From NCBI RefSeq assembly GCF_029227855.1, contig NZ_CP074356.1: 64,000 bases of DNA; one strand, given 5' to 3'. Below, piece by piece: positions 12,214 through 30,761 of the stretch. The position numbers and the translations under genes are program-made. Source of the stretch: Escherichia coli. GTDB lineage: Bacteria > Pseudomonadota > Gammaproteobacteria > Enterobacterales > Enterobacteriaceae. The notes under the pieces are model-generated. The model saw only the letters and a list, made by a program, of their open reading frames with translations, ran no database searches and was not told the origin of the DNA. How positions within the stretch are numbered: the first letter of the stretch is position 1; every line of letters starts with the position of its first letter.

Positions 12214-12950
12214 CATGACTCCTTGCTCATCGCATGAAGACTCCGAGAGTGAACCCCGTTAGAAAGGGTCACACGCATGCCCCAATACAAAATTATTTGC
12301 TCGCCTCTATCGTTGCCATTTCATCAAAAGAGGAAAAGACAATGATAAAAAAGTTACAAATATGTTAATGAATAAACCAAATTGATCCCGTAATTATATT
12401 ACGCCGCAAAATCCTTACAATAAACATGTTTTTATTGAGCAAATTTGCATTTTTCGACAGTGATCAATTTATAGCGAAATTGTCACGATCTCACCAATTT
12501 GATCTACGACAATTTATCGTGTTTTGCAGATTTTTTTCAAGAATTAAAAATTGATTTATATCAAAACCAACCAAATATGTTAATTGTGTATAAACCATAG
12601 ATCATTGGTGATTTTATTGTTAATTTATTGTGAAATATTTATGCAACACAATTATTACAATGAAAAGGTATAGATAAAAAACCAGTGTTTTATTTAACAG
12701 AACCGCCTTATCCACTTTTTATAATACCAATTGATTAGATTAGCCAATTTGTTGCTATTTTACATAACATATTTTTATCAAAGTTAATTGATTGTTGCGT
12801 TTATGAGCACCGGCCGTAAGCCCGTTATGTTATTGTTTCATTAGTAATAATCACTTAAATGTATCGATGAAACAGGTATGACTTAGCGGGAGTGATTGTT
12901 TCTGAGTGAACAGAGACCACTTTCGCCTGATAAATGAAAAATGAGCGATT
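12214..12950 (-). promoter_or_regulatory. Long AT-rich cydAB upstream regulatory region
   Basis: About 0.7 kb non-coding AT-rich DNA upstream of cydA; the cyd promoter is known to be complex (FNR, ArcA, H-NS). Confidence 0.6.
12551..12564. promoter_or_regulatory. Consensus FNR binding site
   Basis: TTGATTTATATCAA is a perfect TTGAT-N4-ATCAA palindrome, about 340 bp upstream of the cydA ATG. Confidence 0.6.
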
Positions 12951-13018
12951 TTTGCAAGTTAGTTTTTCTATAGCCGAGTACGCTCAGCGCCTCGCTTGAT
13001 TACAATGAGGTTGCTGCT

Positions 13019-13963
13019 ATGAGTCCTGATAATATCAGTTCTGCTGTCAATCGCTTCTCAGGTTGGCCATCTAATGATCCTCTAAAAACAGATAAAGAAT
13101 CAATGACATCACCCATGACTGTGCAGGTAATAAAGATGATTGCCGCCATCCTTGACCCACATCGGATAGTCGTTGGAATCGATACACTTTATACAACGCA
13201 GCGCGAAACATTTACCTCAGAGAGTCAACAGCTCATTGAATCAGCATTGCAAACACTTCATGTGATGAATTTAAATAACCTGGAAACAAATCTCGATGAG
13301 GAAGGTCACTATCTGGCTTTTGGATATAACGTTGACACTCCTGACAGAATAACCGTTTCTGCTTATAATGAAAAAAAGCCTGGCTGCTATGGCCAATGTC
13401 TTTTAATACAGGATGACGAAACAGACTTATTTAACCTGATAAAAGTTAAAATTTTTGAAGCCAGGCATAATTATGTCGCTCAATTGATGAGCGATCCGGA
13501 ATTTATGTTCAAATTTAGTTATAGCGCTCAACAAAATAGATTAGAACCTCATCTTCTGGTTCCCACTTATTTCCCTCTAAAAACAAACGAACCGGTTACG
13601 CAAGAGGATGTACTGTTACTTTATCGTTTCTTTAAAATGGATGGTGATTTTAATATATTAACATCAGATGAATACATGAGTATCATGACACCTCTAATGA
13701 AGTGTGAGCGTAGCATCCACGACCACAACAGGTATGTGACGGGCAAAGATACCCTTCTTCTGGACTATCCTCCTTCTGGTAACCAGATATATTTCCATAT
13801 TTTTCCTGACGAATCAGCAACACTAGTCCTTTATTTTTCAAACAATGACATTGAATGTTTCGTCTTTGAAAGAGATATTCCGAGCCAGTATCGCTTTTTC
13901 AAAATGTTTACCAATCTGGCACTGGTTATTGATCAGTTAACCGATGCCAATCAAATACTTTAA
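13019..13963 (+). CDS. Hypothetical protein, AT-rich, no recognisable family
   Basis: 314 aa ORF, soluble, no motif I can recognise; codon usage and base composition unlike flanking core genes. Confidence 0.6.
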   Translation: MSPDNISSAVNRFSGWPSNDPLKTDKESMTSPMTVQVIKMIAAILDPHRIVVGIDTLYTTQRETFTSESQQLIESALQTLHVMNLNNLETNLDEEGHYLAFGYNVDTPDRITVSAYNEKKPGCYGQCLLIQDDETDLFNLIKVKIFEARHNYVAQLMSDPEFMFKFSYSAQQNRLEPHLLVPTYFPLKTNEPVTQEDVLLLYRFFKMDGDFNILTSDEYMSIMTPLMKCERSIHDHNRYVTGKDTLLLDYPPSGNQIYFHIFPDESATLVLYFSNNDIECFVFERDIPSQYRFFKMFTNLALVIDQLTDANQIL

Positions 13964-14043
13964 TTTTTATATATTCCCTGTGGCAAATATTGCTAAACAA
14001 TGCCCGGGGATTAATTTTTATTACTCACGGAAAGATTTAAATA

Positions 14044-14466
14044 ATGATCCCATCTCAAATCTCTTTCAACACCCTTCCTGTCAATGCAACATACGCTTCA
14101 GAGACAACAGTTGACACACAAAAATTCTCTGACATCCTCTACTCAGCGGGGTGTTCCCTAAAGGATCTGGCTTATTTGAGCAGATGTCTGGCATCAATAC
14201 ATCCGACTATCGCCAAAAACATTTATGAAACAGAAAATCTCAGCGATCAAAAATTACTACATATTGATTGCCGTAGTACAAATGAAATCAAGATAAATAT
14301 CTTTTTTGGTCGACAACGAGAAGGATTAATTGAAATTAGTTCTGACACAGTCATTTTTTCGATACTGTCTTCATTGATTGACTCCACCATTTCTAAATTT
14401 CAACACCAAAACCCCGTTAACGGTTCTGTAAATCCTGACCTATTGTATGAGGATTATACTGATTAA
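14044..14466 (+). CDS. Hypothetical protein, AT-rich, no recognisable family
   Basis: 140 aa ORF 80 bp downstream of the 314 aa ORF, same strand; likely co-transcribed. Confidence 0.55.
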   Translation: MIPSQISFNTLPVNATYASETTVDTQKFSDILYSAGCSLKDLAYLSRCLASIHPTIAKNIYETENLSDQKLLHIDCRSTNEIKINIFFGRQREGLIEISSDTVIFSILSSLIDSTISKFQHQNPVNGSVNPDLLYEDYTD

Positions 14467-15013
14467 ATCCCTCCTGTCGCGAAAAATGGCCTGCGTTATT
14501 GCCAGACGTAATAAAACTTTTGATTAACGTTTCTCGTACTGGTAGCACCCTCATGTACTTTTCTTTTTTACGAAAAATCAAAAGAGCTAACAAAGGTCAT
14601 AATTCGCATGAATCATTAATTATTTGTTATTTTCAACATTATTTTTACATTAAGCAGAGATGAATTGCAGTGAAATTCGACTTAACTTTTATGAAATGCA
14701 TTTACTCATGGCTAAAGCCACGTCACAAAAATGCAAATTAGAAGTTGATCACAATTATCTCAATACATCAAATCAAGTTAATTTTAAAAATTTAACATTC
14801 ATGACATCAGTTGACATAACACACTGAATTAAAATGAGAATTTGAAAACACACTTTAAACAATCATTTCCCGAAAGACATTTTGAAAATAGATCAATTGC
14901 AACATTACGGTCAGATAAAGACACTCCTGTGATATTAAACCTGTGCCGTTATGAACGGCCATAAATACGACGTGTGTAACTTATTTTACTCTCTGTCTTA
15001 CAAAGGATTACCC

Positions 15014-15463
15014 ATGAAGAAAGCAACACTTGTGATTGGCGTTATTGGCGCGGACTGCCATGCAGTAGGCAATAAAGTTCTGGACCGCGTTTTTAGCAAC
15101 CATGGCTTCAGAGTCATTAATCTGGGCGTAATGGTCAGCCAGGACGAATATATTGATGCTGCCATTGAAACTGGTGCTGACGCGATTGTCGTCTCCTCTA
15201 TCTATGGGCATGGCGATATCGACTGTCTGGACATGCGCGAACGCTGCATCGAGCGTGGACTGGGGGACATCCTGCTCTATGTGGGCGGTAACCTGGTGGT
15301 CGGAAAACATGACTTCGCTGACGTGGAAACCAAATTCAAAGAGATGGGATTTGATCGCGTCTTTGCCCCAAGTCATGACTTAGAAGATGTTTGTCAGCTG
15401 ATGGCCCACGATATCAACCAACGTCATGACGTTGATACTCGTATTCTTGAAGAGGCAATCTGA
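15014..15463 (+). CDS. glmS: Glutamate mutase sigma (S) subunit, B12-binding
   Basis: [21 protein letters not shown]: the DxHxxG cobalamin-binding motif of methylaspartate mutase S; AGGA RBS 7 nt upstream; start chosen at internal ATG of the track ORF. Symbol follows clostridial glutamate mutase usage, not glucosamine-6-P synthase. Confidence 0.85.
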
Positions 15464-16851
15464 TGCAAATCGTCTCTGTCGATATTGGATCGACGTGGAC
15501 CAAAGCAGCCCTCTTCGCCCGGGAGGGGGACGCGTTAACGTTGGTTAACCACGTACTGACCCCAACCACCCCCCATCATCTGGCGAAGGGGTTTTTCTCC
15601 AGTCTGAACCTGGTGTTAAACGTAGATGATGCCCTCCCCCTGTTTAACAGCGGTGAGGTTGCATTGAAGTATTCCTCCTCTGCCAAAGGTGGGCTGGCGG
15701 TTGCCGCAATGGGATTGGTGCCTTCTATCACCCTGGAAACCGCGAAAGTAACCGCTCACTCTGCGGGGGCTAAAATTGCGCAATATTACGCCTACAAGCT
15801 GAACCGCCGTGATATCCAGGCACTGGAAGAAACGCAGCCCGATATTCTCTTGTTCACCGGCGGCACCGACGGCGGAGAAGAAAGCTACGGCCTGAATAAC
15901 GCCCGTGTGCTGGCAGAATCCAAACTCGACTGCGCCATTATTTATGCCGGAAACCGGGATATTCAGGACAAGGTGCAGGAGATCCTAGGGCATAAAGACC
16001 TGACCATCGTCGACAACGTTCTGCCCGATCTTGACCATCCGAACCCTTTAGCTGCACGCCAGGCTATCTGCGACATATTCCTTAAACGCATCGTTAAAGG
16101 GAAAGGGCTGGATGTCGTTGTTGATAAAACAGGCGAAGAACCAATGCCGACACCGTGGACAGTCTTTGAACTGGTTAAGGCAATCAGTAATGTCGATCAC
16201 AGCTGGAAAGAGTTCATGCTGATCGACATGGGCGGCGCAACCACCGATGTCTATTCCGCCTGTGCCAACACGCTCTCGCCCGACACCGTTTTACACGGCG
16301 TACCGGAACCCTTCGTGAAACGGACGGTGGAAGGCGATCTGGGAATGCGCGTCTCGGCAATGGTGGTTGGTGAAAGTGCGAAAGAGTTAGTCAATGTGAA
16401 TTTTGCTCAGCAACCCGCACAGCTGGACGCTTTTTATCATTACCTCCGTCATCTAGTCGCTCATCCCGACTACTTACCCGCGAATTCAGAAGAAAAATAT
16501 TTCGATACCGTCCTGGCCGGACTGTGTGTGGGTTATGCCACCGAAAGACATGCGGGCACCAAAAAAGAGGTCTGCACCTGCGTCGGCAATGTCGATTTAC
16601 AGATGGGACGTGACCTGACAACCGTGCGTAAAGTCGTCGGATCCGGCGGATGGCTCTCGCGTGCCAGTCAGTTCGATATGCATCACTGGTTGAAATACCG
16701 CAAGTTAAACGACGACGGTAAACGCATTCTCTTACCGACCGAATTTGAATATTACCGCGATTCCCGGGGGCTATTACCATTGCTGGCAAACGTCGCCAGA
16801 GTCGATCCGCTGGCCGCCGCGCGCACCAGTATTCAATGCTTAACCCTATAA
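15463..16851 (+). CDS. glmL: Glutamate mutase L component (MutL/GlmL reactivase-like protein)
   Basis: 462 aa ORF between S and E subunits as in clostridial operons; ATGA overlap with the S subunit. Confidence 0.75.
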   Translation: MQIVSVDIGSTWTKAALFAREGDALTLVNHVLTPTTPHHLAKGFFSSLNLVLNVDDALPLFNSGEVALKYSSSAKGGLAVAAMGLVPSITLETAKVTAHSAGAKIAQYYAYKLNRRDIQALEETQPDILLFTGGTDGGEESYGLNNARVLAESKLDCAIIYAGNRDIQDKVQEILGHKDLTIVDNVLPDLDHPNPLAARQAICDIFLKRIVKGKGLDVVVDKTGEEPMPTPWTVFELVKAISNVDHSWKEFMLIDMGGATTDVYSACANTLSPDTVLHGVPEPFVKRTVEGDLGMRVSAMVVGESAKELVNVNFAQQPAQLDAFYHYLRHLVAHPDYLPANSEEKYFDTVLAGLCVGYATERHAGTKKEVCTCVGNVDLQMGRDLTTVRKVVGSGGWLSRASQFDMHHWLKYRKLNDDGKRILLPTEFEYYRDSRGLLPLLANVARVDPLAAARTSIQCLTL

Positions 16852-16869
16852 CAATTAAGGCTGCAATCA

Positions 16870-18315
16870 ATGGAACTTCGAAATAAGAAATTAACCCATG
16901 ACGAATTCATGACCGAGCGGCAACAGGTACTGAAAACCTGGGAAACCGGCAAGGATGTTGAAAACTTTGAAGATGGCGTTAAATACCAACAAACCATTCC
17001 TGAGCATAAACGCTTCTCTCTTGCGCTGTTGAAAGCAGACAAGGAAGGTAAAACCCTTAGCCAACCGCGCGCAGGTGTGGCGCTGATGGACGAACACATC
17101 GAACTACTGAAAACACTACAAGAAGAGTGCGATCTGCTGCCGAGCACTATCGATGCATATACCCGTCTGAATCGGTACGAAGAAGCGGCTGTAGGGATTA
17201 AAAAATCCATCGAAGCCGGAACCTCTAAACTGAACGGTTTGCCGGTAGTTAACCATGGCGTCGCAGCTTGCCGTCGCCTCACCGAAACCCTGCAAAAACC
17301 GCTACAGATCCGCCACGGCACGCCAGATGCGCGTCTGCTGGCTGAAATCTCGATGTCCAGCGGCTTTACCAGTTACGAAGGCGGCGGCATTTCCTACAAC
17401 ATTCCGTATGCCAAACGCGTAACGCTGGAAAAATCGATCCGCGACTGGCAGTACTGCGACCGTTTAATGGGGATGTATGAAGAACACGGGATCCGCATCA
17501 ACCGCGAACCGTTTGGCCCACTAACAGGTACGCTGATCCCGCCGTTTATCTCGCACTCTATCGCGATAATCGAAGGCTTGCTGGCGCTGGAACAGGGTGT
17601 GAAATCTATCACCGTTGGTTATGGACAGGTCGGCAGCCTGACGCAGGATGTTGCGGCGATCCAGTCTCTGCGTGAACTTGCACACGAATATTTTCAGAGC
17701 TATGGCTATACCGACTATGAATTAAGTACCGTGTTTCACCAGTGGATGGGCGGCTTTCCGGAAGACGAATCGAAAGCGTTCGCTATTATCTCCTGGGGCG
17801 CAGCCGTCGCGGGGATGTCTGGTGCCACCAAAGTCATCACCAAAAGCCCGCACGAAGCCTGGGGTATCCCGACTGCCGCTGCCAACATTCAGGGGCTGAA
17901 AGCCTCCCGCCAGATGCTCAACATGGTCAACGAGCAGAAATTCCCGCCGTGCCCTGCGGTTGAACTGGAAATTGAACTGATTAAGAGCGAGGTTCGCGCG
18001 GTACTGAATAAAGTGTTCGAACTGGGTAATGGTGATATTGCGCGCGGTACGGTGCTGGCATTTGAAGCGGGCGTACTGGATGTGCCGTTTGCGCCAGCCG
18101 CCTGCAACGCGGGCAAAATTCTTCCGGTCCGTGACAACACCGGCGCGATACGCGTACTGGAAGCCGGAGCCGTTCCATTGCCAAAAGATATTCTCGACCT
18201 CCACCACGATTACGTTGCTGAACGCGCACGCTTTGAAGGACGCCAACCGACATTCCAGATGGTTGTAGATGACATCAATGCTGTATCCCACAGTAAATTA
18301 ATAGGAAGACCATAA
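16870..18315 (+). CDS. glmE: Glutamate mutase epsilon (E) catalytic subunit
   Basis: 481 aa, size and gene order match methylaspartate mutase E. Confidence 0.8.
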   Translation: MELRNKKLTHDEFMTERQQVLKTWETGKDVENFEDGVKYQQTIPEHKRFSLALLKADKEGKTLSQPRAGVALMDEHIELLKTLQEECDLLPSTIDAYTRLNRYEEAAVGIKKSIEAGTSKLNGLPVVNHGVAACRRLTETLQKPLQIRHGTPDARLLAEISMSSGFTSYEGGGISYNIPYAKRVTLEKSIRDWQYCDRLMGMYEEHGIRINREPFGPLTGTLIPPFISHSIAIIEGLLALEQGVKSITVGYGQVGSLTQDVAAIQSLRELAHEYFQSYGYTDYELSTVFHQWMGGFPEDESKAFAIISWGAAVAGMSGATKVITKSPHEAWGIPTAAANIQGLKASRQMLNMVNEQKFPPCPAVELEIELIKSEVRAVLNKVFELGNGDIARGTVLAFEAGVLDVPFAPAACNAGKILPVRDNTGAIRVLEAGAVPLPKDILDLHHDYVAERARFEGRQPTFQMVVDDINAVSHSKLIGRP

Positions 18316-19556
18316 TGAAAATAAAACAGGCCCTTTTTACCGCTGGCTACTCCTCATTCTATTTCGATGACCAGCAGGCGATAAAAAACGGAGCGGGTCA
18401 CGACGGTTTTTTTTATACCGGGGAGCCAGTAACACAGGGGTTTAACGCCGTACGTCAGGCCGGGGAGTGCGTATCGGTACAGTTGATTCTGGAAAACGGC
18501 GCGGTCGCCGTAGGTGACTGTGCTGCCGTACAGTATTCCGGGGCAGGCGGTCGCGATCCACTGTTCCTCGCGGAGCACTTTATTCCGTTCCTCAACGACC
18601 ATATCAAGCCATTACTGGTAGGCCGCGATGTGGATGTTTTCCTGCCGAATGCCCGTTTCTTCGACAAATTGCGTATTGACGGCAACTTGCTGCATACCGC
18701 CGTGCGCTACGGATTATCACAGGCTCTGCTTGATGCTACCGCGCTGGCAACCGGCCGTCTGAAAACTGAAGTGATCTGTGATGAATGGCAGTTGCCACGC
18801 GTGGCGGAATCCATTCCATTATTTGGTCAGAGCGGGGACGATCGATATATCGCCGTCGATAAGATGATCCTTAAGGGCATCGACGTGCTGCCCCATGCGC
18901 TGATTAATAACGTCGAAGAGAAGCTGGGCTTTAAAGGTGAAAAACTGCGCGAATATGTCCGCTGGTTGTCGGATCGCATTCTGAGCAAGCGCACCAGCGC
19001 ACGCTACCACCCAATCCTGCACATCGATGTATACGGCACTATCGGTCTGATCTTCGATATGGATCCGCTTCGCTGTGCGCAATACATCGCCAGCCTGGAA
19101 AAAGAAGCGCAAGGCCTGCCGCTCTACATTGAAGGGCCGGTCGATGCCGGTAACAAGCCCGATCAAATTCGCCTGCTGACCGCGATTACCAAAGAGCTGA
19201 CGCGCCTCGGTTCCGGCGTGAAACTAGTGGCCGATGAATGGTGTAACACCTACCAGGATATTGTTGATTTCACAGATGCCGCCAGTTGCCACATGGTGCA
19301 AATCAAAACCCCGGATCTGGGCAGTATTCACAACATCGTCGATGCAGTTCTTTATTGCAACAGCCACAGCATGGAAGCGTACCAGGGCGGCACCTGCAAT
19401 GAAACTGATGTCAGTGCCCGCACCTGTGTCCACGTCGCCCTTGCCGCTCGCCCCATGCGTATGCTGGTAAAACCAGGGATGGGCTTTGACGAAGGCCTCG
19501 ATATCGTCTTCAACGAAATGAATCGTACTATCGCGCTGTTGCAGGCTAAGGATTAA
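18315..19556 (+). CDS. mal: Methylaspartate ammonia-lyase (beta-methylaspartase)
   Basis: 413 aa; N-terminus MKIKQALFTAGYSSFYFDDQQAIKNGAGHDGF matches the enolase-superfamily methylaspartase N-terminus; start overlaps the glmE stop. Confidence 0.85.
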   Translation: MKIKQALFTAGYSSFYFDDQQAIKNGAGHDGFFYTGEPVTQGFNAVRQAGECVSVQLILENGAVAVGDCAAVQYSGAGGRDPLFLAEHFIPFLNDHIKPLLVGRDVDVFLPNARFFDKLRIDGNLLHTAVRYGLSQALLDATALATGRLKTEVICDEWQLPRVAESIPLFGQSGDDRYIAVDKMILKGIDVLPHALINNVEEKLGFKGEKLREYVRWLSDRILSKRTSARYHPILHIDVYGTIGLIFDMDPLRCAQYIASLEKEAQGLPLYIEGPVDAGNKPDQIRLLTAITKELTRLGSGVKLVADEWCNTYQDIVDFTDAASCHMVQIKTPDLGSIHNIVDAVLYCNSHSMEAYQGGTCNETDVSARTCVHVALAARPMRMLVKPGMGFDEGLDIVFNEMNRTIALLQAKD

Positions 19557-19559
19557 CAA

Positions 19560-20930
19560 ATGGCTCGTTCTTTTAAAGTCTTATCGCCAACGGCAATCCT
19601 CGGGTATGGATTCCCGGAAGAGAGCTTCCGCAAAGCGATGGCAGAATCGCCCGATCTGATCGCCGTTGATGCAGGCTCTTCCGATCCTGGCCCCCACTAC
19701 CTCGGGGCGGGCAAACCGTTTACCGATCGCGCAGGGGTCAAGCGCGATCTGCGCTATATGATCACCGCAGGCGTGCAAAATAATATACCGGTGGTGATCG
19801 GAACGGCCGGCGGTTCTGGTGCCGCTCCACACCTGGAGTGGTGCCGAGAAATAATTCATGAGATTGCCCGGGAAGAGCACCTCTCGTTCTCGATGGCGTT
19901 GATCCCGGCAGACGTTGACAAAGCCATCGTCCACCAGGCGCTGGATAACGGCAAAATCACGGCGCTGGAGTTTGTCCCGCCGTTAACCCACGACGCGATT
20001 GACGAAAGTACGTATATCGTTGCGCAAATGGGCATCGAACCCTTCCAGCGGGCGCTGAAAGAAGGCGCGCAAGTGGTGCCGGGCGGGCGCGCTTACGACC
20101 CGGCCTGCTTTGCTGCGCTTCCGATCATGCAAGGCTTTGATGAAGGTCTGGCGCTTCATTGTGGGAAAATCCTTGAATGCGCGGCAATCGCCGCAACGCC
20201 CGGCTCAGGCTCTGACTGTGCGATGGGCATCATTGATGACAACGGCTTTACGCTGAAGACATTTAATCCGAAGCGTAAATTTACCGAAACGTCAGCAGCT
20301 GCACACACACTGTATGAGAAATCCGATCCCTACTTCCTGCCTGGACCTGGCGGCGTGTTGAACCTGAAAGGCTGCACATTTAAAGCGGTCAATGACAGCG
20401 AAGTGTACGTCAGCGGTTCTAAGCATGAAGAAACGCCGTATTCCCTGAAACTGGAAGGTGCGCGACGGGTGGGCTTCCGCTGTCTGACCATCGCAGGAAC
20501 GCGCGACCCGATCATGATCGCCGGGATCGATAAAATCATCGATGAAGTCAAAACCAGCGTTTCGCGTAACCTGTCGCTCGACGATGACAGCATTCACATC
20601 AATTTCCACCTGTACGGCAAAAACGGGGTGATGGGCGACCATGAACCGATGCAAACTGCCGGGCATGAGCTGGGGATTGTCCTAGATGTAGTTGCGCCGA
20701 CCCAGGAAATTGCCAACAGCGTTTGCTCGCTGGTGCGCTCTACTATGCTGCACTACGGCTATGAAAACCGCATCGCTACCGCAGGCAACCTGGCGTTCCC
20801 GTTCTCCCCTTCTGATATCCAGGGCGGGCCGGTATACGAATTTTCCATATATCACCTGATTGAAGCCAACGACGCTCTGCGTTTTGATTTCCATATTGAA
20901 CAGGTGACGCCAGAAGGAGTTCAGGCATGA
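19560..20930 (+). CDS. Conserved protein of unknown function (possibly DUF1446/AtuA-like)
   Basis: 456 aa, starts 4 nt after mal; family assignment is from memory of N-terminal pattern only. Confidence 0.5.
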   Translation: MARSFKVLSPTAILGYGFPEESFRKAMAESPDLIAVDAGSSDPGPHYLGAGKPFTDRAGVKRDLRYMITAGVQNNIPVVIGTAGGSGAAPHLEWCREIIHEIAREEHLSFSMALIPADVDKAIVHQALDNGKITALEFVPPLTHDAIDESTYIVAQMGIEPFQRALKEGAQVVPGGRAYDPACFAALPIMQGFDEGLALHCGKILECAAIAATPGSGSDCAMGIIDDNGFTLKTFNPKRKFTETSAAAHTLYEKSDPYFLPGPGGVLNLKGCTFKAVNDSEVYVSGSKHEETPYSLKLEGARRVGFRCLTIAGTRDPIMIAGIDKIIDEVKTSVSRNLSLDDDSIHINFHLYGKNGVMGDHEPMQTAGHELGIVLDVVAPTQEIANSVCSLVRSTMLHYGYENRIATAGNLAFPFSPSDIQGGPVYEFSIYHLIEANDALRFDFHIEQVTPEGVQA

Positions 20931-21244
20931 AACAGTCAATTGTCTCACTGGCGCAAGTCATTCGTTCGAAAAATGCCGGACCTTACGAACTGGTTTTAGA
21001 TATTTTATTTAAAACGAAAGAAAACTATGAGCGAGTTAAATCATCAGGGCAATTAACCCCAGAACTGATTGCGCGCTTATATCATGTTGAACCTGACTTT
21101 ATTCACCGTATTGTCTGGTTTGATCCTTCTAACGCAGTAAAAATCGTCATGCCACGAGATATTATCTCCGGGAATGTAGGTGACAATGATGTCTATGGTG
21201 CACAGCAACATGCACCTTTATTAAATATGAGTTTCGATTTGTAA
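20927..21244 (+). CDS. Small conserved protein of unknown function (possibly DUF4387-like partner)
   Basis: 105 aa, ATGA overlap with the preceding gene. Confidence 0.5.
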   Translation: MKQSIVSLAQVIRSKNAGPYELVLDILFKTKENYERVKSSGQLTPELIARLYHVEPDFIHRIVWFDPSNAVKIVMPRDIISGNVGDNDVYGAQQHAPLLNMSFDL

Positions 21245-21327
21245 AAATCCGAATACTTTTAGCCAACTGACATCCCGTCACTTATTGCAGTTCAACACTT
21301 CAGCTATTTGTAAGGTTGTAATAGCAG

Positions 21328-21359
21328 GTAGATGCCTGAATCTCTATTCAGGCATCTAC
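21328..21359 (+). terminator. Perfect 14 bp inverted repeat; candidate terminator or operator between operon and transporter gene
   Basis: GTAGATGCCTGAAT-ctct-ATTCAGGCATCTAC followed by T-rich ttctcctgattctgattt. Confidence 0.55.
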
Positions 21360-21404
21360 TTCTCCTGATTCTGATTTATCGCCGTGCACCTGATGGAGGA
21401 AAAA

Positions 21405-22685
21405 ATGAAGAAAATAAGTTTAACCACGATGATTCTTTTGGCGCTGGTACTTGGAATGATTATCGGCGTAGTGCTCAATAACACTGCTTCACCGGAAACC
21501 GCAAAACTCTATGCGCAAGAAATATCGATATTCACGACGATTTTCTTACGACTGATAAAAATGATTATCGCTCCGTTAGTGGTCTCTACCCTGGTGGTAG
21601 GTATAGCTAAAATGGGCGATGCCAAAGCCCTTGGTCGTATTTTTTCTAAAACACTCTTTTTATTTATTTGCGCCTCATTGCTGTCAATTGCCTTAGGCTT
21701 GATAACAGTAAATTTCTTCATGCCAGGCACAGGAATTAATTTTGTTGCACACGGAGCCGAAACCACCGGAGTGGTCGCGTCAGAACCCTTTACGCTAAAA
21801 GTATTTATTTCGCATGCTTTCCCCACCAGCATTGTCGATGCCATGGCGCACAATGAAATTTTGCAAATCGTGGTGTTCTCAATTTTCCTCGGCTGTAGCC
21901 TGACGGCGATTGGCGAGAAAGGCAGCGCCATCGTTCACGCCTTAGATTCGCTGGCACATGCCATGTTAAAGCTCACTGGCTACGTCATGCTCTTCGCTCC
22001 CCTGACCGTATTCGCTGCTATTTCAGCATTGATTGCTGAACGAGGACTGGCAGTTATGGTGAGCGCCGGGATCTTTATGGGTGAATTTTATTTCACCATG
22101 TTATTACTTTGGGTGCTGCTTATCGGTCTGGCCATCGTTTATGTTGGCCCCTGCATCAGACGCCTGACCCGCGCCCTTTCGGAACCCGCCCTGCTGGCAT
22201 TTACCACATCCAGTTCTGAAGCGGCTTTTCCGGGAACGCTTGAAAAACTGGAGCAATTTGGCGTTTCCCCAAAAATTGCCAGTTTTGTCTTACCCATTGG
22301 CTACTCATTTAATCTCGTTGGATCAATGGCCTACTGCTCCTTCGCCACAGTTTTCATCGCCCAGGCCTGCAATATCCATTTATCCATCGGTGAGCAAATC
22401 ACCATGCTGTTGATCCTGATGTTGACCTCGAAAGGAATGGCTGGCGTACCACGCGCCTCAATGGTGGTTATCGCCGCCACGCTCAACCAGTTCAATATTC
22501 CGGAAGCGGGGCTGATCTTGCTGATGGGCGTTGATCCGTTCCTTGATATGGGGCGTTCAGCGACAAACGTCATGAGCAACGCAATGGGCGCTGCGATGGT
22601 GAGTCGGTGGGAAGGCGAACATTTCGGCGAGGGCTGTCGGGGTAAAGCATTAAAACCCAATGAATCGAACGTTGCTCTGCCCTGA
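21405..22685 (+). CDS. Dicarboxylate/amino acid:cation symporter (GltP/DctA family), probable glutamate uptake
   Basis: About 426 aa polytopic protein; GGAGGA RBS 5 nt upstream of ATG 21405 (track ORF starts at an upstream GTG). Confidence 0.8.
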   Translation: MKKISLTTMILLALVLGMIIGVVLNNTASPETAKLYAQEISIFTTIFLRLIKMIIAPLVVSTLVVGIAKMGDAKALGRIFSKTLFLFICASLLSIALGLITVNFFMPGTGINFVAHGAETTGVVASEPFTLKVFISHAFPTSIVDAMAHNEILQIVVFSIFLGCSLTAIGEKGSAIVHALDSLAHAMLKLTGYVMLFAPLTVFAAISALIAERGLAVMVSAGIFMGEFYFTMLLLWVLLIGLAIVYVGPCIRRLTRALSEPALLAFTTSSSEAAFPGTLEKLEQFGVSPKIASFVLPIGYSFNLVGSMAYCSFATVFIAQACNIHLSIGEQITMLLILMLTSKGMAGVPRASMVVIAATLNQFNIPEAGLILLMGVDPFLDMGRSATNVMSNAMGAAMVSRWEGEHFGEGCRGKALKPNESNVALP

Positions 22686-22792
22686 GGGGGATCTTAAGCA
22701 ATCAGAAGCCAATGACTACGCATTTTTATAAGCCGGATCATGAAGTTAGACGGCAATTAAGTAAAACTAACGTTTAAGGTGAAAAGTGAAAT

Positions 22793-24445
22793 ATGTCCAA
22801 ACCATTTATCTGGCAAGAACCGTTTCTACAAAATAAAGACGGTACAGAATATACATTAATTAGCGATCAACATATTACAGTAACGGAATTAGACGGCGAA
22901 GAAGTAATAAAAATCGCTCCTGAAGCATTAACGCTGCTTGCCCGGCAGGCATTTTATGAAGCCTCTTTTTTCTTACGTTCCGCTCATTTGCAACAGGTCG
23001 CCAGCATTCTTAACGATCCGCAGGCCAGTAGTAATGATAAATACGTTGCGTTGCAGTTATTACGTAATGCTGAAGTCTCAGCAAAAGGGGTATTACCCAA
23101 CTGTCAGGATACCGGCACCGCAACTATTGTTGCCAGTAAAGGGCAACAGATATGGACGGGAGGTAACGACGCTGAAGCCTTAAGCAAAGGCATTTACACC
23201 ACTTTTCAGGAAAATAATCTGCGCTTTTCACAAAATGCGCCACTGGATATGTTTACCGAAGTCAATACGCAAACCAATCTCCCGGCGCAGATTGATATCA
23301 GCGCCGTCGCTGGTGATGAGTACCATTTTCTCTGTATTAATAAAGGGGGCGGCTCTGCCAATAAAGCCGCGCTTTATCAGGAAACCAAATCCCTATTGCA
23401 ACCAGAAAAACTGACCGCATTTTTAATCGAAAAAATGAAATCGCTGGGCACCGCTGCCTGCCCGCCTTACCACATCGCCTTTGTCGTCGGAGGACTTTCA
23501 GCCGATCAAACCTTAAAAGTTGCCAAGCTGGCCTCAACGAAATATTACGACAATTTGCCCACCAGCGGAAACGAGCAAGGACAAGCATTCCGTGATATTG
23601 AGCTGGAAAAAGTATTGCTCGAGGCCAGTCAGCAATTTGGTATTGGTGCGCAATTTGGGGGTAAATATTTCGCTCATGATATTCGCGTCATTCGTCTGCC
23701 GCGTCACGGTGGCTCTTGCCCGATAGCTATGGCGCTCTCCTGTTCTGCGGATCGCAATATCAAAGCAAAAATTAACAAGCACGGTATCTGGCTGGAAAAA
23801 CTCGAACACAATCCGGGGCAATATATTCCAGCCTCACTGCGGGAAGAAAATCACGCGCAACATGTACAGCTGGATCTAAACCGTCCGTTGCGTGACGTGA
23901 TGCAGGATCTCGCCAGATTACCGGTAGGCACCCGCGTGTCGTTAAGTGGTCCCATCGTAGTGGCGCGCGATATCGCCCACGCCAAAATAAAAGCGCGGCT
24001 GGATAGCGGCGAACCGATGCCGGATTACCTGAAGCATCATATTGTCTATTACGCTGGCCCGGCGAAAACACCGGAGAACATGGCCTGCGGTTCACTGGGT
24101 CCAACCACGGGCGGTCGAATGGACGGTTATGTCGATACCTTCCAGGCGGTTGGCGGCAGTCTGGTGATGTTATCGAAAGGTCACCGCAGCCAGCAGGTCA
24201 CCGATGCCTGTCACAAACATGGCGGCTTCAATCTGGGAAGTATTGGCGGTGCAGCTGCGTTACTGGCGCAAGAATATGTCAAAAGTCTGCGTTGCCTGGA
24301 ATACCCGGAGCTGGGTATGGAAGCGGTGTGGATGATGGAAGTGGAAAATCTGCCCGCATTCATCCTGGTAGATGATAAAGGCAATAATTTCTTTAGTCAG
24401 TTTGAGCAGCAACACCGCTGCGCCAGTTGCCCTGCGGGACATTAA
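22793..24445 (+). CDS. fumD: Class I (Fe-S) fumarate hydratase family enzyme, probable mesaconase
   Basis: 550 aa; N-terminus closely parallels FumA ([31 protein letters not shown]); linkage to glutamate mutase/methylaspartase as described for the E. coli O157:H7 mesaconase FumD. Confidence 0.8.
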
Positions 24446-24454
24446 GGAAAATGA

Positions 24455-25057
24455 ATGGAAGCGCGAATTTCAACTGAACGGCATGTGCAGCGCCAGCAGA
24501 AATTGAAGGAACAGGTCGATACGCGCATCGCGGCGGCGATAGAGAAAAAAGGGATTTTGATTGTTTTCACCGGCAATGGCAAAGGGAAATCCACTGCCGC
24601 GTTTGGTACTGTGACGCGCGCGGTGGGTCATGGCAAAACGGTGGGGGTTGCGCAGTACATCAAGGGGCAATGGGACAACGGCGAATACAACCTTCTCCAG
24701 CCGCTGGGGGTTGAGTTTCATATTATGGGAACCGGTTTTACCTGGGAGACACAGAACCGGCAAGCGGATATCGACGCGGCGAAAGAGGTCTGGTCGGAAA
24801 GCAAACGGATGCTGGCTGACAAGCGTTACGACTTAGTGGTGCTTGATGAGCTGACCTATATGCTGGCTTACCATTATCTGGATACCGAAGAAGTGATCGC
24901 TTCTCTGCAAAACCGCCCGGCACAACAAAGTGTCATTGTCACCGGACGCGGTTGCCACAGTCAGATATTAAAAATGGCGGATACGGTCAGCGAAATCCGC
25001 CCCGTCAAACATGCTTTTGATAACGGCATTCAGGCGCAGCCGGGTATCGACTGGTAA
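24455..25057 (+). CDS. ATP:cob(I)alamin adenosyltransferase (CobA/BtuR paralog)
   Basis: 200 aa; GILIVFTGNGKGKSTAAFG P-loop and strong collinearity with E. coli BtuR. Confidence 0.85.
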   Translation: MEARISTERHVQRQQKLKEQVDTRIAAAIEKKGILIVFTGNGKGKSTAAFGTVTRAVGHGKTVGVAQYIKGQWDNGEYNLLQPLGVEFHIMGTGFTWETQNRQADIDAAKEVWSESKRMLADKRYDLVVLDELTYMLAYHYLDTEEVIASLQNRPAQQSVIVTGRGCHSQILKMADTVSEIRPVKHAFDNGIQAQPGIDW

Positions 25058-25060
25058 TAA

Positions 25061-25093
25061 CTGCGCCTGGCATCCCGCCAGGCGCAGGTTTTA
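25061..25093. terminator. Bidirectional terminator hairpin between convergent cobA-like and LysR genes
   Basis: CTGCGCCTGGC-atccc-GCCAGGCGCAG then gtttta. Confidence 0.6.
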
Positions 25094-25996
25094 CATCTCC
25101 TGCGGTACAACCGATTTCGCCAGCAACCATTCACGAAATTGCTGCAAGTGCGGTGAGTCAGACTTCTCTTCCTGCCACGTCATAATAAAACGATTACCGG
25201 TACGAATAGGCACATCACAGGGGATCACCATATCGCCACTATCCAAATCATGTTGAATAGCGAAACGTGGTAACAGCGCCACGCCGAGATTAGAGCGCAC
25301 GGCGGCAATCAGCATTGAAAGCAAATCGAAACGTGGTCCGTTGTTGACCAGTGGACTGCTAACGCCAGATAAAGCAAACCACTCTTCCCAGCCAGTAATA
25401 CGGGTGCTTTGATGCAGAAGTGGTAACTCAGTAAGCAGTTCTGCCACTGACAGTTTTTGATCGGACATTGCAAGCAAACTGCCGCTGCATACCGGCAAAA
25501 TCTCCTCATCAAAGAGATATTCTACTTCCGCCCAGGGCGCGCAAAAATTTTCGCGCATAATGACAGCATCGTACTCCCGATTAAGAAAATCGCCGTTATT
25601 AGCTAAAGAGTGAATATTAACAATAATATCGGGATGTAACTTTGTGAATTCATGTAAATTTGGGATTAACCAGTGGGTACTAAACGTAGGATTCACGGCA
25701 AGTTCAATAACCTGAACCGTAGGCTGCCAGGTCATAATAGTATTGGTATCGCGTTCCAGCTTATTTAATGTTTCTTTTACTATCCCCAGGTAATACTTCC
25801 CTGCATCATTAAGAAAAATACGTTTTTTAGAGTGTGAAAATAACGGAGTATGTAAAAATTCCTCCAGCGCACTCACTTGTCTGAATACAGCACTTTGGGT
25901 TAACGCTAACTCCTCTGCCGCTCTGGTATAACTTTCATAACGTGCGACGACCTCAAAAGTCACCAGCAGCTCCGTTTTAGGTATTTTTCCTCGCAT
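25091..25996 (-). CDS. LysR-family transcriptional regulator
   Basis: N-terminal HTH (TRAAEELALTQSAVFRQVSALE) and LysR substrate-binding domain; start at ATG 25996 with RBS; divergent from the RtcB-like gene. Confidence 0.85.
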   Translation of the reverse strand: MRGKIPKTELLVTFEVVARYESYTRAAEELALTQSAVFRQVSALEEFLHTPLFSHSKKRIFLNDAGKYYLGIVKETLNKLERDTNTIMTWQPTVQVIELAVNPTFSTHWLIPNLHEFTKLHPDIIVNIHSLANNGDFLNREYDAVIMRENFCAPWAEVEYLFDEEILPVCSGSLLAMSDQKLSVAELLTELPLLHQSTRITGWEEWFALSGVSSPLVNNGPRFDLLSMLIAAVRSNLGVALLPRFAIQHDLDSGDMVIPCDVPIRTGNRFIMTWQEEKSDSPHLQQFREWLLAKSVVPQEM

Positions 25997-26585
25997 AATT
26001 CCGTCCGTGAAAAAATAACAATTCAAAAATTATTTTATAAAAAACAGTAGCACTAATGAATATCATAATTCAAATAAACAAACCAGTCAGCTATATGTCT
26101 AACCAGGAAAATAAAGTGACAATAATCCTAAAACAGGAATTTCACCTCAGTTATCCGCATGCAATACTTTAAAGCTATTATTGCAAGAATATTATTCATA
26201 TACATGAATATACTCTAAATAAGTCAAGTTGCAGGAAGGGAACAAATAATGAATTTCCAGAAGCTTACATAAGTAAGTGACCTGAGTGAGCGAACATCGA
26301 TGCAGCACATGCAACTTGAATTATGACAAGTATACAATGATAAATTTATATACCCTATGTTATATATTATCTATGTCCGGTTAAATTGAATGAGTCATGG
26401 CCTTAAAAGACTTCACAAAAGATAATTCCTCTTTAACAATAAGCCAGATTTACCACTTGTAAAACTTGCTATCGCCACATACACTACGCGCGTTTTCTTT
26501 CCCTTTTGCTGGCTGCTGACCGGAAAGACAAAATTACCCTCGCAATACAGGGGGTTGTTTAACGTCTATATTTCAGGACAGCGTT

Positions 26586-27983
26586 ATGCATCATCTTTCA
26601 AGGCTTGATAAAGCCTTTCTGCGCAAAGGGATCCAACTTTCCCGCGCCAACAATATTGTTTCATTATCTCGTCCATCAGGTGCCAGTGCCCGCGTACTGC
26701 TGCCGGACGAACTGCCGCTGGAAGAAAAAGCAGTAACACAACTGCTTGATTTTGCAGAAGTGAAGCTACCAGACCACCCAGGTTATGTGCGCCAGACGTG
26801 CGCGACGCCAGATTTTCATCCCGGCAATGGCGTCCCCGTTGGCGCGGTGGTGGCCTCAACGCCGGATTTAGTCATTCCCGCCGCCATCGGCACCGATATT
26901 TCTTGTGGCATGCGGCTGCTGACGACCGGATTAACACTTGAGCAAGCCGAAGCGCATAAAGACATCATCGCTCAGCGGTTAACGCAAGTGCTGCTGCAAA
27001 ATGAGCGCGATGTTCCGTTATCCGCACAGGCGTTCACTGCGCTTTTTGATGGCGGACCGGCAGATTGCGTGTCGACCTTGCCATCAGCAGGTCTCTGGAC
27101 ACGCACGAATATCCCCCGAATGGTACAAGAGATTGACTGCTGCATTGGGCTTAACGAGCATAACAGTCATTCGCGTTATGCCCCACCCGCCCTGCTGGCA
27201 ACGGACCGCGCATTACTCCGCGATCCTTGTCTGGGTACGCCGGGTTCAGGTAATCATTTTATTGAACTTCAGGTCGTTGATAGCGTGGTTGATCGCCATG
27301 TAGCCTGGCAACAAGGGCTGAAAACAGGCGATATTGTGGTGATGATCCACAGTGGATCGCGAGATGTTGGCTTTTACGTCGGAAGACGCTGGATGGATCG
27401 CGCCCGTGCTGAATGGCCCACCGGACATAAACATCCACAAAGCGGGTTATATGGTCTGGCAGGCGGACTGGCGGAGGAATATCTACAAGCGATAGGAATG
27501 GCTGCGCGTTACGCGTGGTTAAATCGCGTCACAATTGCCGAAATGGTGCGCGTATGTCTCGCCAATCTCTTTCATCAGGACAATTCGCATCTGGTGGTGG
27601 ATGTGCCGCATAACATCATCCTTCGCGAGCATGAAATGAATATTCATCGCAAAGGTGCAACACCGGCACGAGTGGGCGATCTGGCATTAATCCCCGGTTC
27701 AATGGGCGATTATTCGTGGCTTGCAGTCGGTTGCGGCAACCCGGAGTGGCTGTGGTCATGCAGTCACGGAGCAGGACGCAGCCAGCGTCGACAGGCCATG
27801 CGCTCAAGCGCGACTGAAGAGTCAACGCTGCCGTGGCAATGCGTCACATTGCGTGAAGAACGACGTCTTGAAGAAGCGCCAGCGGCTTATAAAGATATTG
27901 GTCCGGTTATCGAAGCCCAACAAGAAGCCGGATTAATTCAACCAGCGGTCAGATTTCGACCGTGGTTAACGTTTAAGGGGTAA
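26586..27983 (+). CDS. RtcB-family RNA ligase paralog (stand-alone)
   Basis: 465 aa with RtcB signature blocks DISCGMRL, GSGNHFIE, MIHSGSRDVG, HRKGATPARVGDLALIPGSMG, CSHGAGR, APAAYKDIGPV; all metal/GMP-binding Cys/His positions appear conserved. Confidence 0.8.
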   Translation: MHHLSRLDKAFLRKGIQLSRANNIVSLSRPSGASARVLLPDELPLEEKAVTQLLDFAEVKLPDHPGYVRQTCATPDFHPGNGVPVGAVVASTPDLVIPAAIGTDISCGMRLLTTGLTLEQAEAHKDIIAQRLTQVLLQNERDVPLSAQAFTALFDGGPADCVSTLPSAGLWTRTNIPRMVQEIDCCIGLNEHNSHSRYAPPALLATDRALLRDPCLGTPGSGNHFIELQVVDSVVDRHVAWQQGLKTGDIVVMIHSGSRDVGFYVGRRWMDRARAEWPTGHKHPQSGLYGLAGGLAEEYLQAIGMAARYAWLNRVTIAEMVRVCLANLFHQDNSHLVVDVPHNIILREHEMNIHRKGATPARVGDLALIPGSMGDYSWLAVGCGNPEWLWSCSHGAGRSQRRQAMRSSATEESTLPWQCVTLREERRLEEAPAAYKDIGPVIEAQQEAGLIQPAVRFRPWLTFKG

Positions 27984-28066
27984 CTGAAATGATAAATGGC
28001 CTGCGGTTCTCACGCAGGTCAAATCTGGTATCTGCGTAAGCTAACAAACTTGTTTATCAACAATCT

Positions 28067-28088
28067 CAGGCCATCCGAAGATGGCCTG
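28067..28088. terminator. Hairpin between convergent RtcB-like gene and mngB
   Basis: CAGGCCATC-cgaa-GATGGCCTG, 9 bp stem. Confidence 0.5.
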
Positions 28089-28127
28089 AAATTATTGCCC
28101 CCCTTAGATACACTTTTAGCGCAATAA

Positions 28128-30761
28128 TCAGCCAAGGCGGTAGCTAAATGTCCGTGACTGCCCCGGTAAAAATGCCCCCAGTTCCTTTAAATTATCTCTT
28201 TCCGCTGTGCTGATGCTTTCATCCATCATCGTTTGCGTACATGAAATCACCTCACGACTGAACGCGACAGTTGCCTCACAGGTTGTCGATTCTGCCGGAT
28301 TAAACAGTCGCAATACCACTTCTTGCCGGTCTTCCGCTTTTTTAAGAGCGCTAATCAGGCATCCCACAGGGGGCATTTTCAGCAAGCTATAGCTTTCCGG
28401 CACATTGAATCCGGCTTTATTTAACTTCATCGCATCCCACGGGATTTTGTTGTAACACTGTACTGGCGTCAGCCATGCACGCGCCTGCTGGGCTACACCG
28501 GCGGTCGAAGGCGTACCTGTATAACTAAATAAGCTCAGACGGCAGCTAAAGGAGCCACGTAATTGTGAATCGGGCACCGGCATTTTTATACCCGAAGGAC
28601 GTCCAGGCCTTAAAAGCAGATCTTCTTTCCCCAGTAAGCCCACGCCACGCAGCAACGTAATGGCAAAGGTTTTCTTCTCTTCACCGATGACTTCGAATTC
28701 ACGTAGCCCTTCGCTAAAGACAGCCAGACCGTTACGCCCTTCCTGTAAGGCAGCATAGTTGAGCATATTCCATACCGGAACAGGCGCTTCTTTCCAGCCT
28801 TCTTGTTGCCAGACATCCATCGCACTGTCGCTCACCGGGCGCGTTAGCGAACCAAACTGGGTATCGGCCAGAACATTGTCGGTGTTGAAAGGTGTAGGGA
28901 CCAGGACGCGAAGGCGATGATCGTCAGCCTGGTTATCAAGGTTGATAACCACATCAATGCGCCTGCTGTTATCACTCAGAGTGACAACCAACTCCACCCC
29001 TACTCTACCCGTGCATTGCCGTGCGCTGCGTTCTTGTAGATTACGCGGCACCGCCATGTCATAGCGGATAACAGCCCTGCTCTGCCAGGCCTCATGAATA
29101 ATCTCGCATTGCGGTTTCGCATTCGCCGAAGTAATTACCCACTCTTCTTTTGCAGGTGAATAGTCATATTCATCACCATCATCAGAGCTTTCTTCAATTT
29201 GCAATACCCGGTCATAGCGCACACCGCTGTCTTTATCTACCAGTTGTAGCGTTCCATCCTCATTGAGCGCAATTTGCCAGAAAGCATTTTCCAGTATCCC
29301 TTCAGCGTCACTTTTTGCCGCAATCACGTTGCCAGGCTGATTCGTTTCGATATAAAGCGTGCGATAGCCCATAGAAGGGACAATCTGGTTGATCTGAATA
29401 TCAAACTCCATAAAGGGATCGTAATTACCGTAATGAACGATTTGCCGATCGATTAGGCCAGGATCGATCTCACGGGCATGGCGAATAAAATACGGTACAG
29501 GCTGACCGCGATCGTCCCGCAAATTAAACTGGCTAGCGCGCAGCCGCACAGTGGTGTTGATCACTTCTTCCCGCGGCCAGGGCATCAGGTTAAACAGCAC
29601 AAGTTTGTCGGCATCACTCTGTGGCATGTTATCGGCAATTTTGCGCATGTAGAAACGAATCAGATTATCCGCCATGTCTTCAGCCAGTTCGAAGCGGGCG
29701 ACGATTTCGCGATGAACTTTGTCACTGCAACAACAACCGATACTGTCGTGGGCATGATTTTTTAAGATCTCTTTCCACATTTTCTCCAGCAAGCCGTGGT
29801 GGTATTCAAAACCTAAAGTCCAGGCCAGTGTTGCCAGCGGTTCCAGCAGATTAACAATCTTATTTTCAATACGCGCGTGGGCAATTTTGATATCCATGCG
29901 CGTGGAACCGATGGTGCGATGCACGCGCATATATTTGCCATCGATAAATTCACCTTTCAGAGTCGCCAGATTATCTCGCTGCGCTTCAATCTGCTCGAAT
30001 ACCTCTTCAAAGCGGCTCATCACAAACTTTCGTTGAGGATAAATTTCGCGAAGTTTCTCCATCACTTCGAAGATATTTTGCTGCAATGGCATCTGATCAT
30101 GACCATTCGGCAATAAAATTTCTTTGGTTACTGACGCTTTTTCCAGCACGTCAAAATAACTGTCGAGACGTTTGCGTAATCCGTCTTCGTCGGCAGGTAA
30201 GTACTTACCGATGGCGTAGCCCAGCGGCAGCACCTGCGCCGTCACTTCGCTACCATCACTGCTTTGCCACAAAAACTCGGTTTTATCAGTACCGTGGCGC
30301 TCAGAACATCCGCGCCAGAACATGGTGCGGGTAATGCCAAATCCATTGTAAATATGCGGCAGTTGCTCGGACATGCCAAAGGAATCTGGTAAATAACCTA
30401 TTTTCATCGGCTCGCCAAACGCGAGGCAGTCACGCATTCCGTACATCAGATTACGGACGATGGATTCCGCAGAAACAATCGTGGTATCGGTCTGGGTATA
30501 CCAGGGGCCGATAATCAACTTACCGGCTTCTACCAGTTTCTTCACGCGCTCTTTGTTTTCCGGTTTCACCGCGAAATAATCTTCGAGGATCGCCGTTTGC
30601 CCGTCGAGTACGTAATATTTGTATTCGTTGTCCTGTTCCAGTCGGCGCAGGATCTCTTCCATATTATTGACCAGCAGAATGCGTGACTCTTCGGTGGTGA
30701 AATACCACTCCCGATCCCAGTGCATATGCGGGGTGATGTGAACGCGAGATACCGCTTTCAT
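28128..30761 (-). CDS. mngB: Mannosylglycerate hydrolase (GH38 alpha-mannosidase)
   Basis: 877 aa; [21 protein letters not shown]; synteny with mngA/mngR. Confidence 0.95.

Follow-up and report, generated by a model that had tools for sequence, protein, structure and literature searches.

Why should a genome of Escherichia coli, a species that imports B12 and does not make the corrin ring itself, carry a second gene of the cob(I)alamin adenosyltransferase type besides the housekeeping btuR? The question is raised by a gene in a stretch of 64,000 nucleotides of E. coli DNA (contig NZ_CP074356.1 of assembly GCF_029227855.1; hereafter the window), where it stands in one cluster with the genes of an adenosylcobalamin (AdoCbl)-dependent mutase. 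An earlier note on this DNA had read the gene as a BtuR/CobA paralogue and had taken its linkage to the mutase to imply local cofactor supply for that enzyme. Here, we consider it reasonably probable that the product of this gene is a functional CobA-type ATP:co(I)rrinoid adenosyltransferase of the enterobacterial glm-mal-fumD cluster, and that the gene is expressed there as the final cistron, at least together with fumD.

Identity and setting of the cluster-linked gene

Judged from its sequence, the window protein is an adenosyltransferase of the CobA/BtuR type that keeps its catalytic residues. The full Pfam profile PF02572 (CobA_CobO_BtuR) was matched from 1 to 172 of 172 positions with E=4.7e-64 and a score of 216 bits (cutoff 25.7), the equivalog TIGR00708 (cobA) of NCBIfam gave 246.6 bits where its curated cutoff is 167.75, and PRK05986 gave 296 bits against a cutoff of 185; the Pfam Co_AT_N match at residues 8-25 fell just under its cutoff (21.3 against 21.4 bits). 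All families matched are of the CobA type, and the protein is a member of neither the PduO nor the EutT family. In RefSeq the gene is named cobO and its product cob(I)yrinic acid a,c-diamide adenosyltransferase. The protein aligns gaplessly, over its residues 6-200, with residues 2-196 of the Salmonella enterica CobA structure 1G5R (E=3e-88; the enzyme is also represented by PDB 1G5T, 1G64 and 4HUT), and this collinearity with the solved fold includes the N-terminal helix that caps the neighbouring active site. The protein is 68.4% identical to Salmonella CobA and 67.3% identical to E. coli K-12 BtuR.

The collinearity with BtuR/CobA that had been proposed, P-loop included, is thus borne out by a gapless alignment of 195 residues, by PF02572 and TIGR00708 scores above their cutoffs and by the presence of the motif GNGKGKST. 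The corresponding motif of the housekeeping enzymes is GNGKGKTT, so the P-loop is kept and its sole change is a conservative one from Thr to Ser. At this position (Thr42 in Salmonella numbering) all 19 cluster-type copies carry Ser, as do two of the 67 housekeeping copies, the other 65 having Thr. In Salmonella numbering, the window protein retains every one of R9, R51, W69, F91, W93, N97, R98, E128, Y131, Y135 and R161, and the pair F95 and W97, equivalent to Phe91 and Trp93, is invariant across all 87 sequences compared. According to a title cited in PMC5282855 (Moore et al. 2012), it is these two residues that displace the lower ligand to yield four-coordinate cob(II)alamin.

The gene is the last of a co-oriented row on the plus strand, in the order glmS-glmL-glmE-mal-AtuA-DUF4387-transporter-fumD-cobA (Table 1). 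The mutase genes glmS and glmE lie 6-9 kb upstream of it on the same strand. GlmE matches the Clostridium glutamate mutase (PDB 6H9E/1CCW) over its full length (E=5e-190), while GlmS is collinear with the solved clostridial subunit (PDB 1I9C, E=1e-49) and carries the DxHxxG motif as DCHAVG. Because of this collinearity and motif the linked enzyme is a bona fide AdoCbl-dependent mutase, and the linkage on which the earlier note had built its argument is real. The neighbouring FumD has been characterised biochemically from O157:H7 (PMC4682846).

The gap between fumD and cobA measures only 9 nt, and the Shine-Dalgarno sequence of cobA overlaps the fumD stop codon (TAAGGAA), an arrangement by which the two genes could be translationally coupled. 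In the form TAAGGAG-N5-6-ATG this junction is kept in seven genera, namely Salmonella, Enterobacter, Citrobacter, Pluralibacter, Buttiauxella, Klebsiella and Morganella. On the other side, a hairpin that begins 4 nt past the cobA stop is the best-scoring terminator of the 16-kb region, and it is likely to act as a bidirectional terminator that marks the end of the operon. The convergent LysR-family gene behind it is a candidate regulator of the cluster. Internal promoters could lie in the gaps of 108-160 nt that precede fumD and the transporter gene; a promoter scan of the island returned 22 sites where 24 were expected from shuffled sequence, and hence no promoter was placed. Neither a cobalamin riboswitch nor another Rfam element was detected between positions 12000 and 28500 at E<=0.1.

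Table 1. Features of the glm-mal-fumD-cobA locus, in coordinates of the window
Feature	Coordinates	Strand	Basis or remark
glmS, glutamate mutase S subunit, B12-binding	15014..15463	+	Pfam B12-binding; RefSeq start 15014
glmL/MutL, glutamate mutase accessory (reactivating) protein	15463..16851	+	Pfam MutL PF13941, E=3e-138; RefSeq
glmE, glutamate (methylaspartate) mutase E subunit	16870..18315	+	Pfam Met_asp_mut_E, E=4e-214
mal, methylaspartate ammonia-lyase	18315..19556	+	Pfam MAAL_N, MAAL_C; RefSeq
AtuA/DUF1446-family protein, conserved cluster member	19560..20930	+	Pfam PF07287; synteny
DUF4387 protein, conserved cluster member	20927..21244	+	Pfam PF14330; in all 18 related loci
Dicarboxylate/amino acid:cation symporter (GltP in the 2015 paper)	21405..22685	+	Pfam SDF, E=2e-102; RefSeq
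fumD, class I fumarase/mesaconase, directly upstream of cobA	22793..24445	+	Pfam Fumerase, Fumerase_C
fumD stop TAA, overlapping Shine-Dalgarno AAGGAA, 5-6 nt spacer, cobA ATG	24443..24457	+	Sequence
Cluster-linked cobA/btuR-type ATP:corrinoid adenosyltransferase gene	24455..25057	+	ATG-initiated ORF, 200 aa; RefSeq cobO, WP_000388202.1
Walker-A P-loop codons, GNGKGKST, residues 40-47 (= Salmonella CobA 36-43)	24572..24595	+	Sequence, residue mapping
Phe95/Trp97 codons (= Salmonella Phe91/Trp93)	24737..24745	+	Kept by all 19 cluster-type and all 67 housekeeping copies
Ser169 codon, position of Salmonella CobA Arg165	24959..24961	+	Arginine lost in the cluster clade, elsewhere invariant
G+C-rich hairpin with a stem of 11 bp, of which 9 are GC pairs; separates cobA from the convergent LysR gene	25061..25087	.	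Top terminator-like site in 12200-28200
LysR-family regulator, convergent with cobA	25091..25996	-	RefSeq; in all related loci, 78-85% identity

Distribution and descent of the cluster copy

Among 5426 complete E. coli genomes, 1121 (21%) carry the cluster cobA at an identity of at least 95%, and glmE was found at a coverage of at least 80% in 1121 E. coli genomes. The block of fumD and cobA is contiguous in every one of the 1122 matching E. coli records, which represent 1121 genomes. Kronen & Berg 2015 (PMC4682846, Fig 5 legend) gave the frequency of the cluster as 26.5% among E. coli strains and 90.6% among those of O157:H7. A second CobA-type match at about 68% nucleotide identity occurs in 5422 of the 5426 genomes, so that an island-bearing E. 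coli genome has two CobA-type genes. The premise of a btuR already present in core E. coli therefore holds. The window gene is also, as had been claimed, a second copy inside an island, an accessory segment flanked by cydA and mngB; the G+C content of this block is 47.7% against 50.3% for the window. In K-12 the housekeeping btuR overlaps the end of yciK and is followed by rluB, and a yciK-btuR operon has been described (PMC10802341).

The O157:H7 copy differs from that of the window at six nucleotides, of which five are synonymous and one is nonsynonymous (I25V). In O157:H7 ATCC 700728, Kronen & Berg (PMC4682846) could identify no condition that brings the cluster to expression, and they detected no methylaspartase activity. 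Species known to express methylaspartase include Citrobacter amalonaticus and Morganella morganii (Kato & Asano, as cited in PMC4682846). A different RefSeq product name for the LysR regulator of O157:H7 raised truncation as a candidate cause of this silence, which was rejected since the two regulators have the same length and differ by five substitutions.

Outside E. coli, a protein search with the window protein recovered proteins of 82-87% identity in Citrobacter, Enterobacter, Salmonella and Pluralibacter, and in the four genomes examined each copy belongs to this cluster and follows fumD at a distance of 9 nt. When species-representative genomes were scanned, 13 further cluster-type loci were obtained at 80-85% identity, from Citrobacter spp., Raoultella, Lelliottia, Buttiauxella and Klebsiella michiganensis, together with 67 loci at 65-71%. 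The two groups are separated by their neighbourhoods as determined by tblastn. All 18 cluster-type loci outside E. coli (Salmonella, Enterobacter, Citrobacter, Pluralibacter, Raoultella, Lelliottia, Buttiauxella and Klebsiella) are accompanied by glmL, glmE, mal, AtuA, DUF4387, SDF, fumD and LysR genes where the sequence reaches far enough; two shorter loci are without glmL, and one of these is also without glmE. The yciK-linked loci, on the other hand, have yciK in 66 of 66 cases and mostly rluB, with cluster genes in none of the 66. The yciK-cobA-rluB neighbourhood was seen at none of the 19 cluster-type loci, which places the window gene outside the orthologue group of the housekeeping btuR/cobA. 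Both types of copy are present together in the genomes of nine species.

A neighbour-joining tree of 41 sequences sets the cluster-linked copies apart as a clade of their own (bootstrap 100/100), and the cluster copy is roughly equidistant, at 65-71% identity, from all Enterobacterales housekeeping copies. A recent duplication of btuR is ruled out by this equal distance and the separate clade, which point instead to an ancient lineage of its own that accompanies the cluster. Between genera the cluster CobA is 83-86% identical, compared to 83-92% for the other cluster proteins, and it has thus evolved at about the same rate.

There is one exception to the two-group pattern. The remaining low-identity locus belongs to Morganella morganii, whose copy is sister to the cluster clade (94/100) and lies in a symporter-fumD-cobA arrangement with the stop/Shine-Dalgarno/ATG junction of the cluster. 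No glm or mal genes were found within 10 kb of this copy, so the most conserved linkage of the cluster cobA is that to fumD and not that to the mutase genes. Next to the M. morganii copy are a LysR gene and, with cobT-cobC-cobS-cobU-cbiP, the end of a cobalamin biosynthesis operon, and one may speculate that the cluster copy possibly originated by capture of a cobA that once stood beside a cob operon.

Proposed role and competing readings

From the gene linkage and the precedent of PduO and EutT we infer a local supply of cofactor, and comparison supports well that this supply is probably tied to glutamate mutase. Following the paradigm of Salmonella CobA, the P-loop would bind MgATP, and Phe95 and Trp97 would render imported cob(II)alamin, or another cobamide, four-coordinate. 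The four-coordinate corrinoid would then be reduced to Co(I), which would attack the C5' of ATP to yield an adenosylcobamide and triphosphate. GlmS is the presumed recipient of the AdoCbl formed. Because cobA would be switched on together with GlmS, GlmE and GlmL, the capacity for adenosylation would rise just when the AdoCbl-dependent mutase is made, and the cofactor could be re-adenosylated after GlmL-assisted exchange. The cluster CobA would in this way supplement a weakly expressed housekeeping BtuR. It has been reported that raised BtuR expression benefits E. coli when a cobamide is poorly used, and that dosage matters for pseudocobalamin (PMC10802341). In B12-producing genera the cluster also contains a uroporphyrinogen methyltransferase and a PocR-type regulator (PMC4682846 Fig 5), which were seen in the clusters of such genera here too, and this reinforces the notion of a cluster that brings its own cofactor supply. 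The nine genomes with both copies and the btuR of every island-bearing E. coli argue that the cluster copy does not simply compensate for a missing housekeeping enzyme.

The presence of BtuR in 5422 of 5426 genomes also invites another reading, in which the cluster enzyme is an active but redundant adenosyltransferase that is carried along with the cluster and gives glutamate mutase no specific gain beyond what BtuR, which might suffice, provides. CobA-type enzymes are regarded as housekeeping enzymes of broad specificity (PMC7242693), and the lack of detectable expression or phenotype of the cluster in O157:H7 (PMC4682846) fits this reading as well. A neutral passenger is, however, expected to decay or to vanish in some lineages, and selection and retention of the gene count against it. 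Where dS could be estimated, dN/dS between genera was 0.03-0.06 over a synonymous divergence that is saturated, and this purifying selection extends over at least nine genera. Not one loss was recorded in 1122 E. coli copies or in 18 loci elsewhere, even beside a housekeeping cobA, and the ribosome-binding junction is conserved. We therefore regard redundancy as an unlikely explanation, and prefer an enzyme that contributes to the cofactor supply of the cluster.

The differences between the clades raise the further question of whether the cluster copy has become a specialised variant that has diverged in its electron-donor partner, its cobamide preference or its hand-off to GlmS/GlmL, and that would not be interchangeable with BtuR. 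Ten alignment columns have no residue in common between cluster and housekeeping clades, and the cluster copies have four extra residues at the N-terminus. At position 165 all 67 housekeeping (yciK-linked) copies and that of Morganella have Arg, whereas the 19 cluster copies all have S, T, A or V. In CobA, the docking of flavodoxin (FldA), though not catalysis, reportedly involves Arg9, Arg165 and the N-terminal helix. If Arg165 does have this role, its loss might impair flavodoxin-dependent reduction. The dosage effect of BtuR in the use of pseudocobalamin by E. coli (PMC10802341) likewise leaves room for divergence in cobamide use. Against specialisation, the known catalytic and corrinoid-site residues are unchanged, Arg9 among them, and Pfam analysis of the cluster genes revealed no recognisable candidate reductase. 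Position 165 is moreover variable inside the cluster clade and not fixed to one new residue, and relaxed constraint is at least as likely an explanation as a new interface.

Specialisation in this general sense appears somewhat less probable than redundancy. More doubtful still is a more definite version of it, in which a clade that lost the flavodoxin-docking Arg165 and remodelled its N-terminus obtains its reduced corrinoid through another reductase, or by a hand-over of cob(II)alamin from the GlmL/GlmS repair complex, and serves as a mutase-coupled recycling enzyme. The Arg165 difference between the clades is a small, previously unreported detail of the alignment, and its bearing on flavodoxin docking is put forward as a lead and not as a result.

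That the copy is decayed or non-catalytic, as a pseudogene or as a protein of the CobA fold with another role, is hardly credible, since only the conservative T42S exchange in the P-loop and the loss of R165 speak for it, while the frame is intact, the match to the solved enzyme is gapless and full-length, the score lies above the curated equivalog cutoff, GK[ST] is the canonical Walker A motif and purifying selection is strong.

Relation to known systems

The cluster cobA is itself already known, both from its annotation as cobO in RefSeq and from the label CobA in Fig 5 of Kronen & Berg 2015 (PLoS One 10:e0145098, PMC4682846). That study described the cluster GlmS-MutL-GlmE-Mal-DUF1446-GltP-FumD-CobA-LTTR, in which CobA, named as cob(I)alamin adenosyltransferase, is the same gene as that of the window, the O157:H7 copy differing by I25V; it characterises FumD and reports no adenosyltransferase assay or analysis. 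Searches of the later literature for the cluster, DUF4387 and the O157 locus tags ECs0756-0761 returned only this paper, and no enzymatic or genetic test of the cluster adenosyltransferase was found in the searchable literature. Added here are the co-occurrence counts, the structure of two clades with diagnostic neighbourhoods, the purifying selection, the conserved translational junction and the Arg165 difference.

If the proposed role is true, about one E. coli genome in five, and among them most of those of O157:H7, would hold a self-contained B12-dependent module leading from glutamate to citramalate, and many strains of Citrobacter, Enterobacter, Klebsiella and Salmonella would carry the same module with its own cofactor activation. 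This would be relevant to the use of scavenged cobamides by gut enterobacteria and to the engineering of mesaconate or citramalate production.

The glutamate mutase clusters of clostridia (C. tetanomorphum, C. cochlearium, C. tetani) share a homologous glmS-mutL-glmE-mal core with the enterobacterial cluster. They have split mesaconase genes as well as citramalate lyase genes, with no adenosyltransferase listed (Fig 4 legend, PMC4682846), whereas the enterobacterial cluster is without the lyase and has in addition the transporter, fumD, cobA and the LysR regulator.

With Salmonella CobA and E. coli BtuR the cluster copy has in common the families PF02572 and TIGR00708, an identity of 67-68% over 195 gapless residues, and the conserved P-loop, Arg9, Phe91/Trp93, Glu128 and Arg161. 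It differs from them in its place at the end of glm-mal-fumD instead of within yciK-cobA-rluB, in its separate 100/100 clade, in its N-terminus longer by four residues, in Thr42Ser and in the replacement of Arg165 by S, T, A or V.

The closest parallel in organisation is offered by PduO and EutT, adenosyltransferases that are likewise encoded inside the operon of an AdoCbl enzyme, besides the housekeeping enzyme (PMC7242693). They belong to unrelated families, and the likeness to the cluster CobA is one of logic and not of ancestry; microcompartment genes are absent from the glm-mal-fumD cluster, and the role of PduO and EutT has been demonstrated whereas that of the cluster CobA is a proposed one. 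The pattern of a pathway-dedicated enzyme is nonetheless seen here, in that the gene shares its cluster with an AdoCbl enzyme, is co-inherited with it and occurs in genomes that have a housekeeping copy. If the proposed role holds, the cluster copy would be a CobA-type case of the principle of one adenosyltransferase per AdoCbl pathway, which has so far been documented with PduO and EutT.

The sister of the cluster-linked CobA clade

The sister of the clade formed by the cluster-linked CobA adenosyltransferases is the CobA of Morganella morganii, in which Arg165 (Salmonella CobA numbering; Arg in housekeeping copies, S/T/A/V in cluster-type copies) is retained. At this locus (L064) symporter-fumD-cobA is directly adjoined by a LysR gene and by one end of the cobalamin operon (cobT/cobC/cobS/cobU/cbiP), and no glm or mal genes were found within 10 kb.

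Locations of the features discussed
Feature	Record	Position	Strand	Size	Remarks
ORF	window	13019-13963	+	314 aa	between cydA and glmS; RefSeq: hypothetical
ORF	window	14044-14466	+	140 aa	between cydA and glmS; RefSeq: hypothetical
AtuA/DUF1446 and DUF4387 genes	window	19560-21244			overlapping
RtcB-family protein gene	window	26586-27983		465 aa	between LysR regulator and mngB
Cluster regions with extra genes relative to E. coli	cluster-type copy L003	7244-8245 and 11993-13644			likewise in cluster-type copy L005
symporter-fumD-cobA, adjoining LysR gene and cobalamin operon end	L064, NZ_CP066129.1	6573-17112			Morganella morganii

Candidates for the chemistry after citramalate

The pathway step that follows citramalate is not known (PMC4682846), and the AtuA-family and DUF4387 proteins are therefore candidates for this missing chemistry. 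The pair is kept in all cluster copies compared across genera (the window and L003-L019), and no mention of DUF4387 was found in the literature searched.

Borders and gene content of the cluster

Neither of the two ORFs between cydA and glmS has a match in Pfam. O157:H7 (L087) lacks the RtcB-family gene, mngB, mngA and mngR, and sucD directly adjoins the LysR gene; on its right-hand side the accessory region is thus bordered differently from strain to strain. The fumD-cobA/glmE block occurs 1122 times in the E. coli genome collection; a single copy lies on a plasmid-typed record, and the genome concerned carries the block twice.

In Salmonella and Citrobacter, the LysR gene is followed by genes for a TP_methylase (uroporphyrinogen methyltransferase) and for an AraC regulator with a PocR domain. 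The cluster versions of Salmonella, Citrobacter, Enterobacter and Pluralibacter harbour a glutaminase gene between the symporter gene and fumD, whereas the E. coli version is devoid of it.
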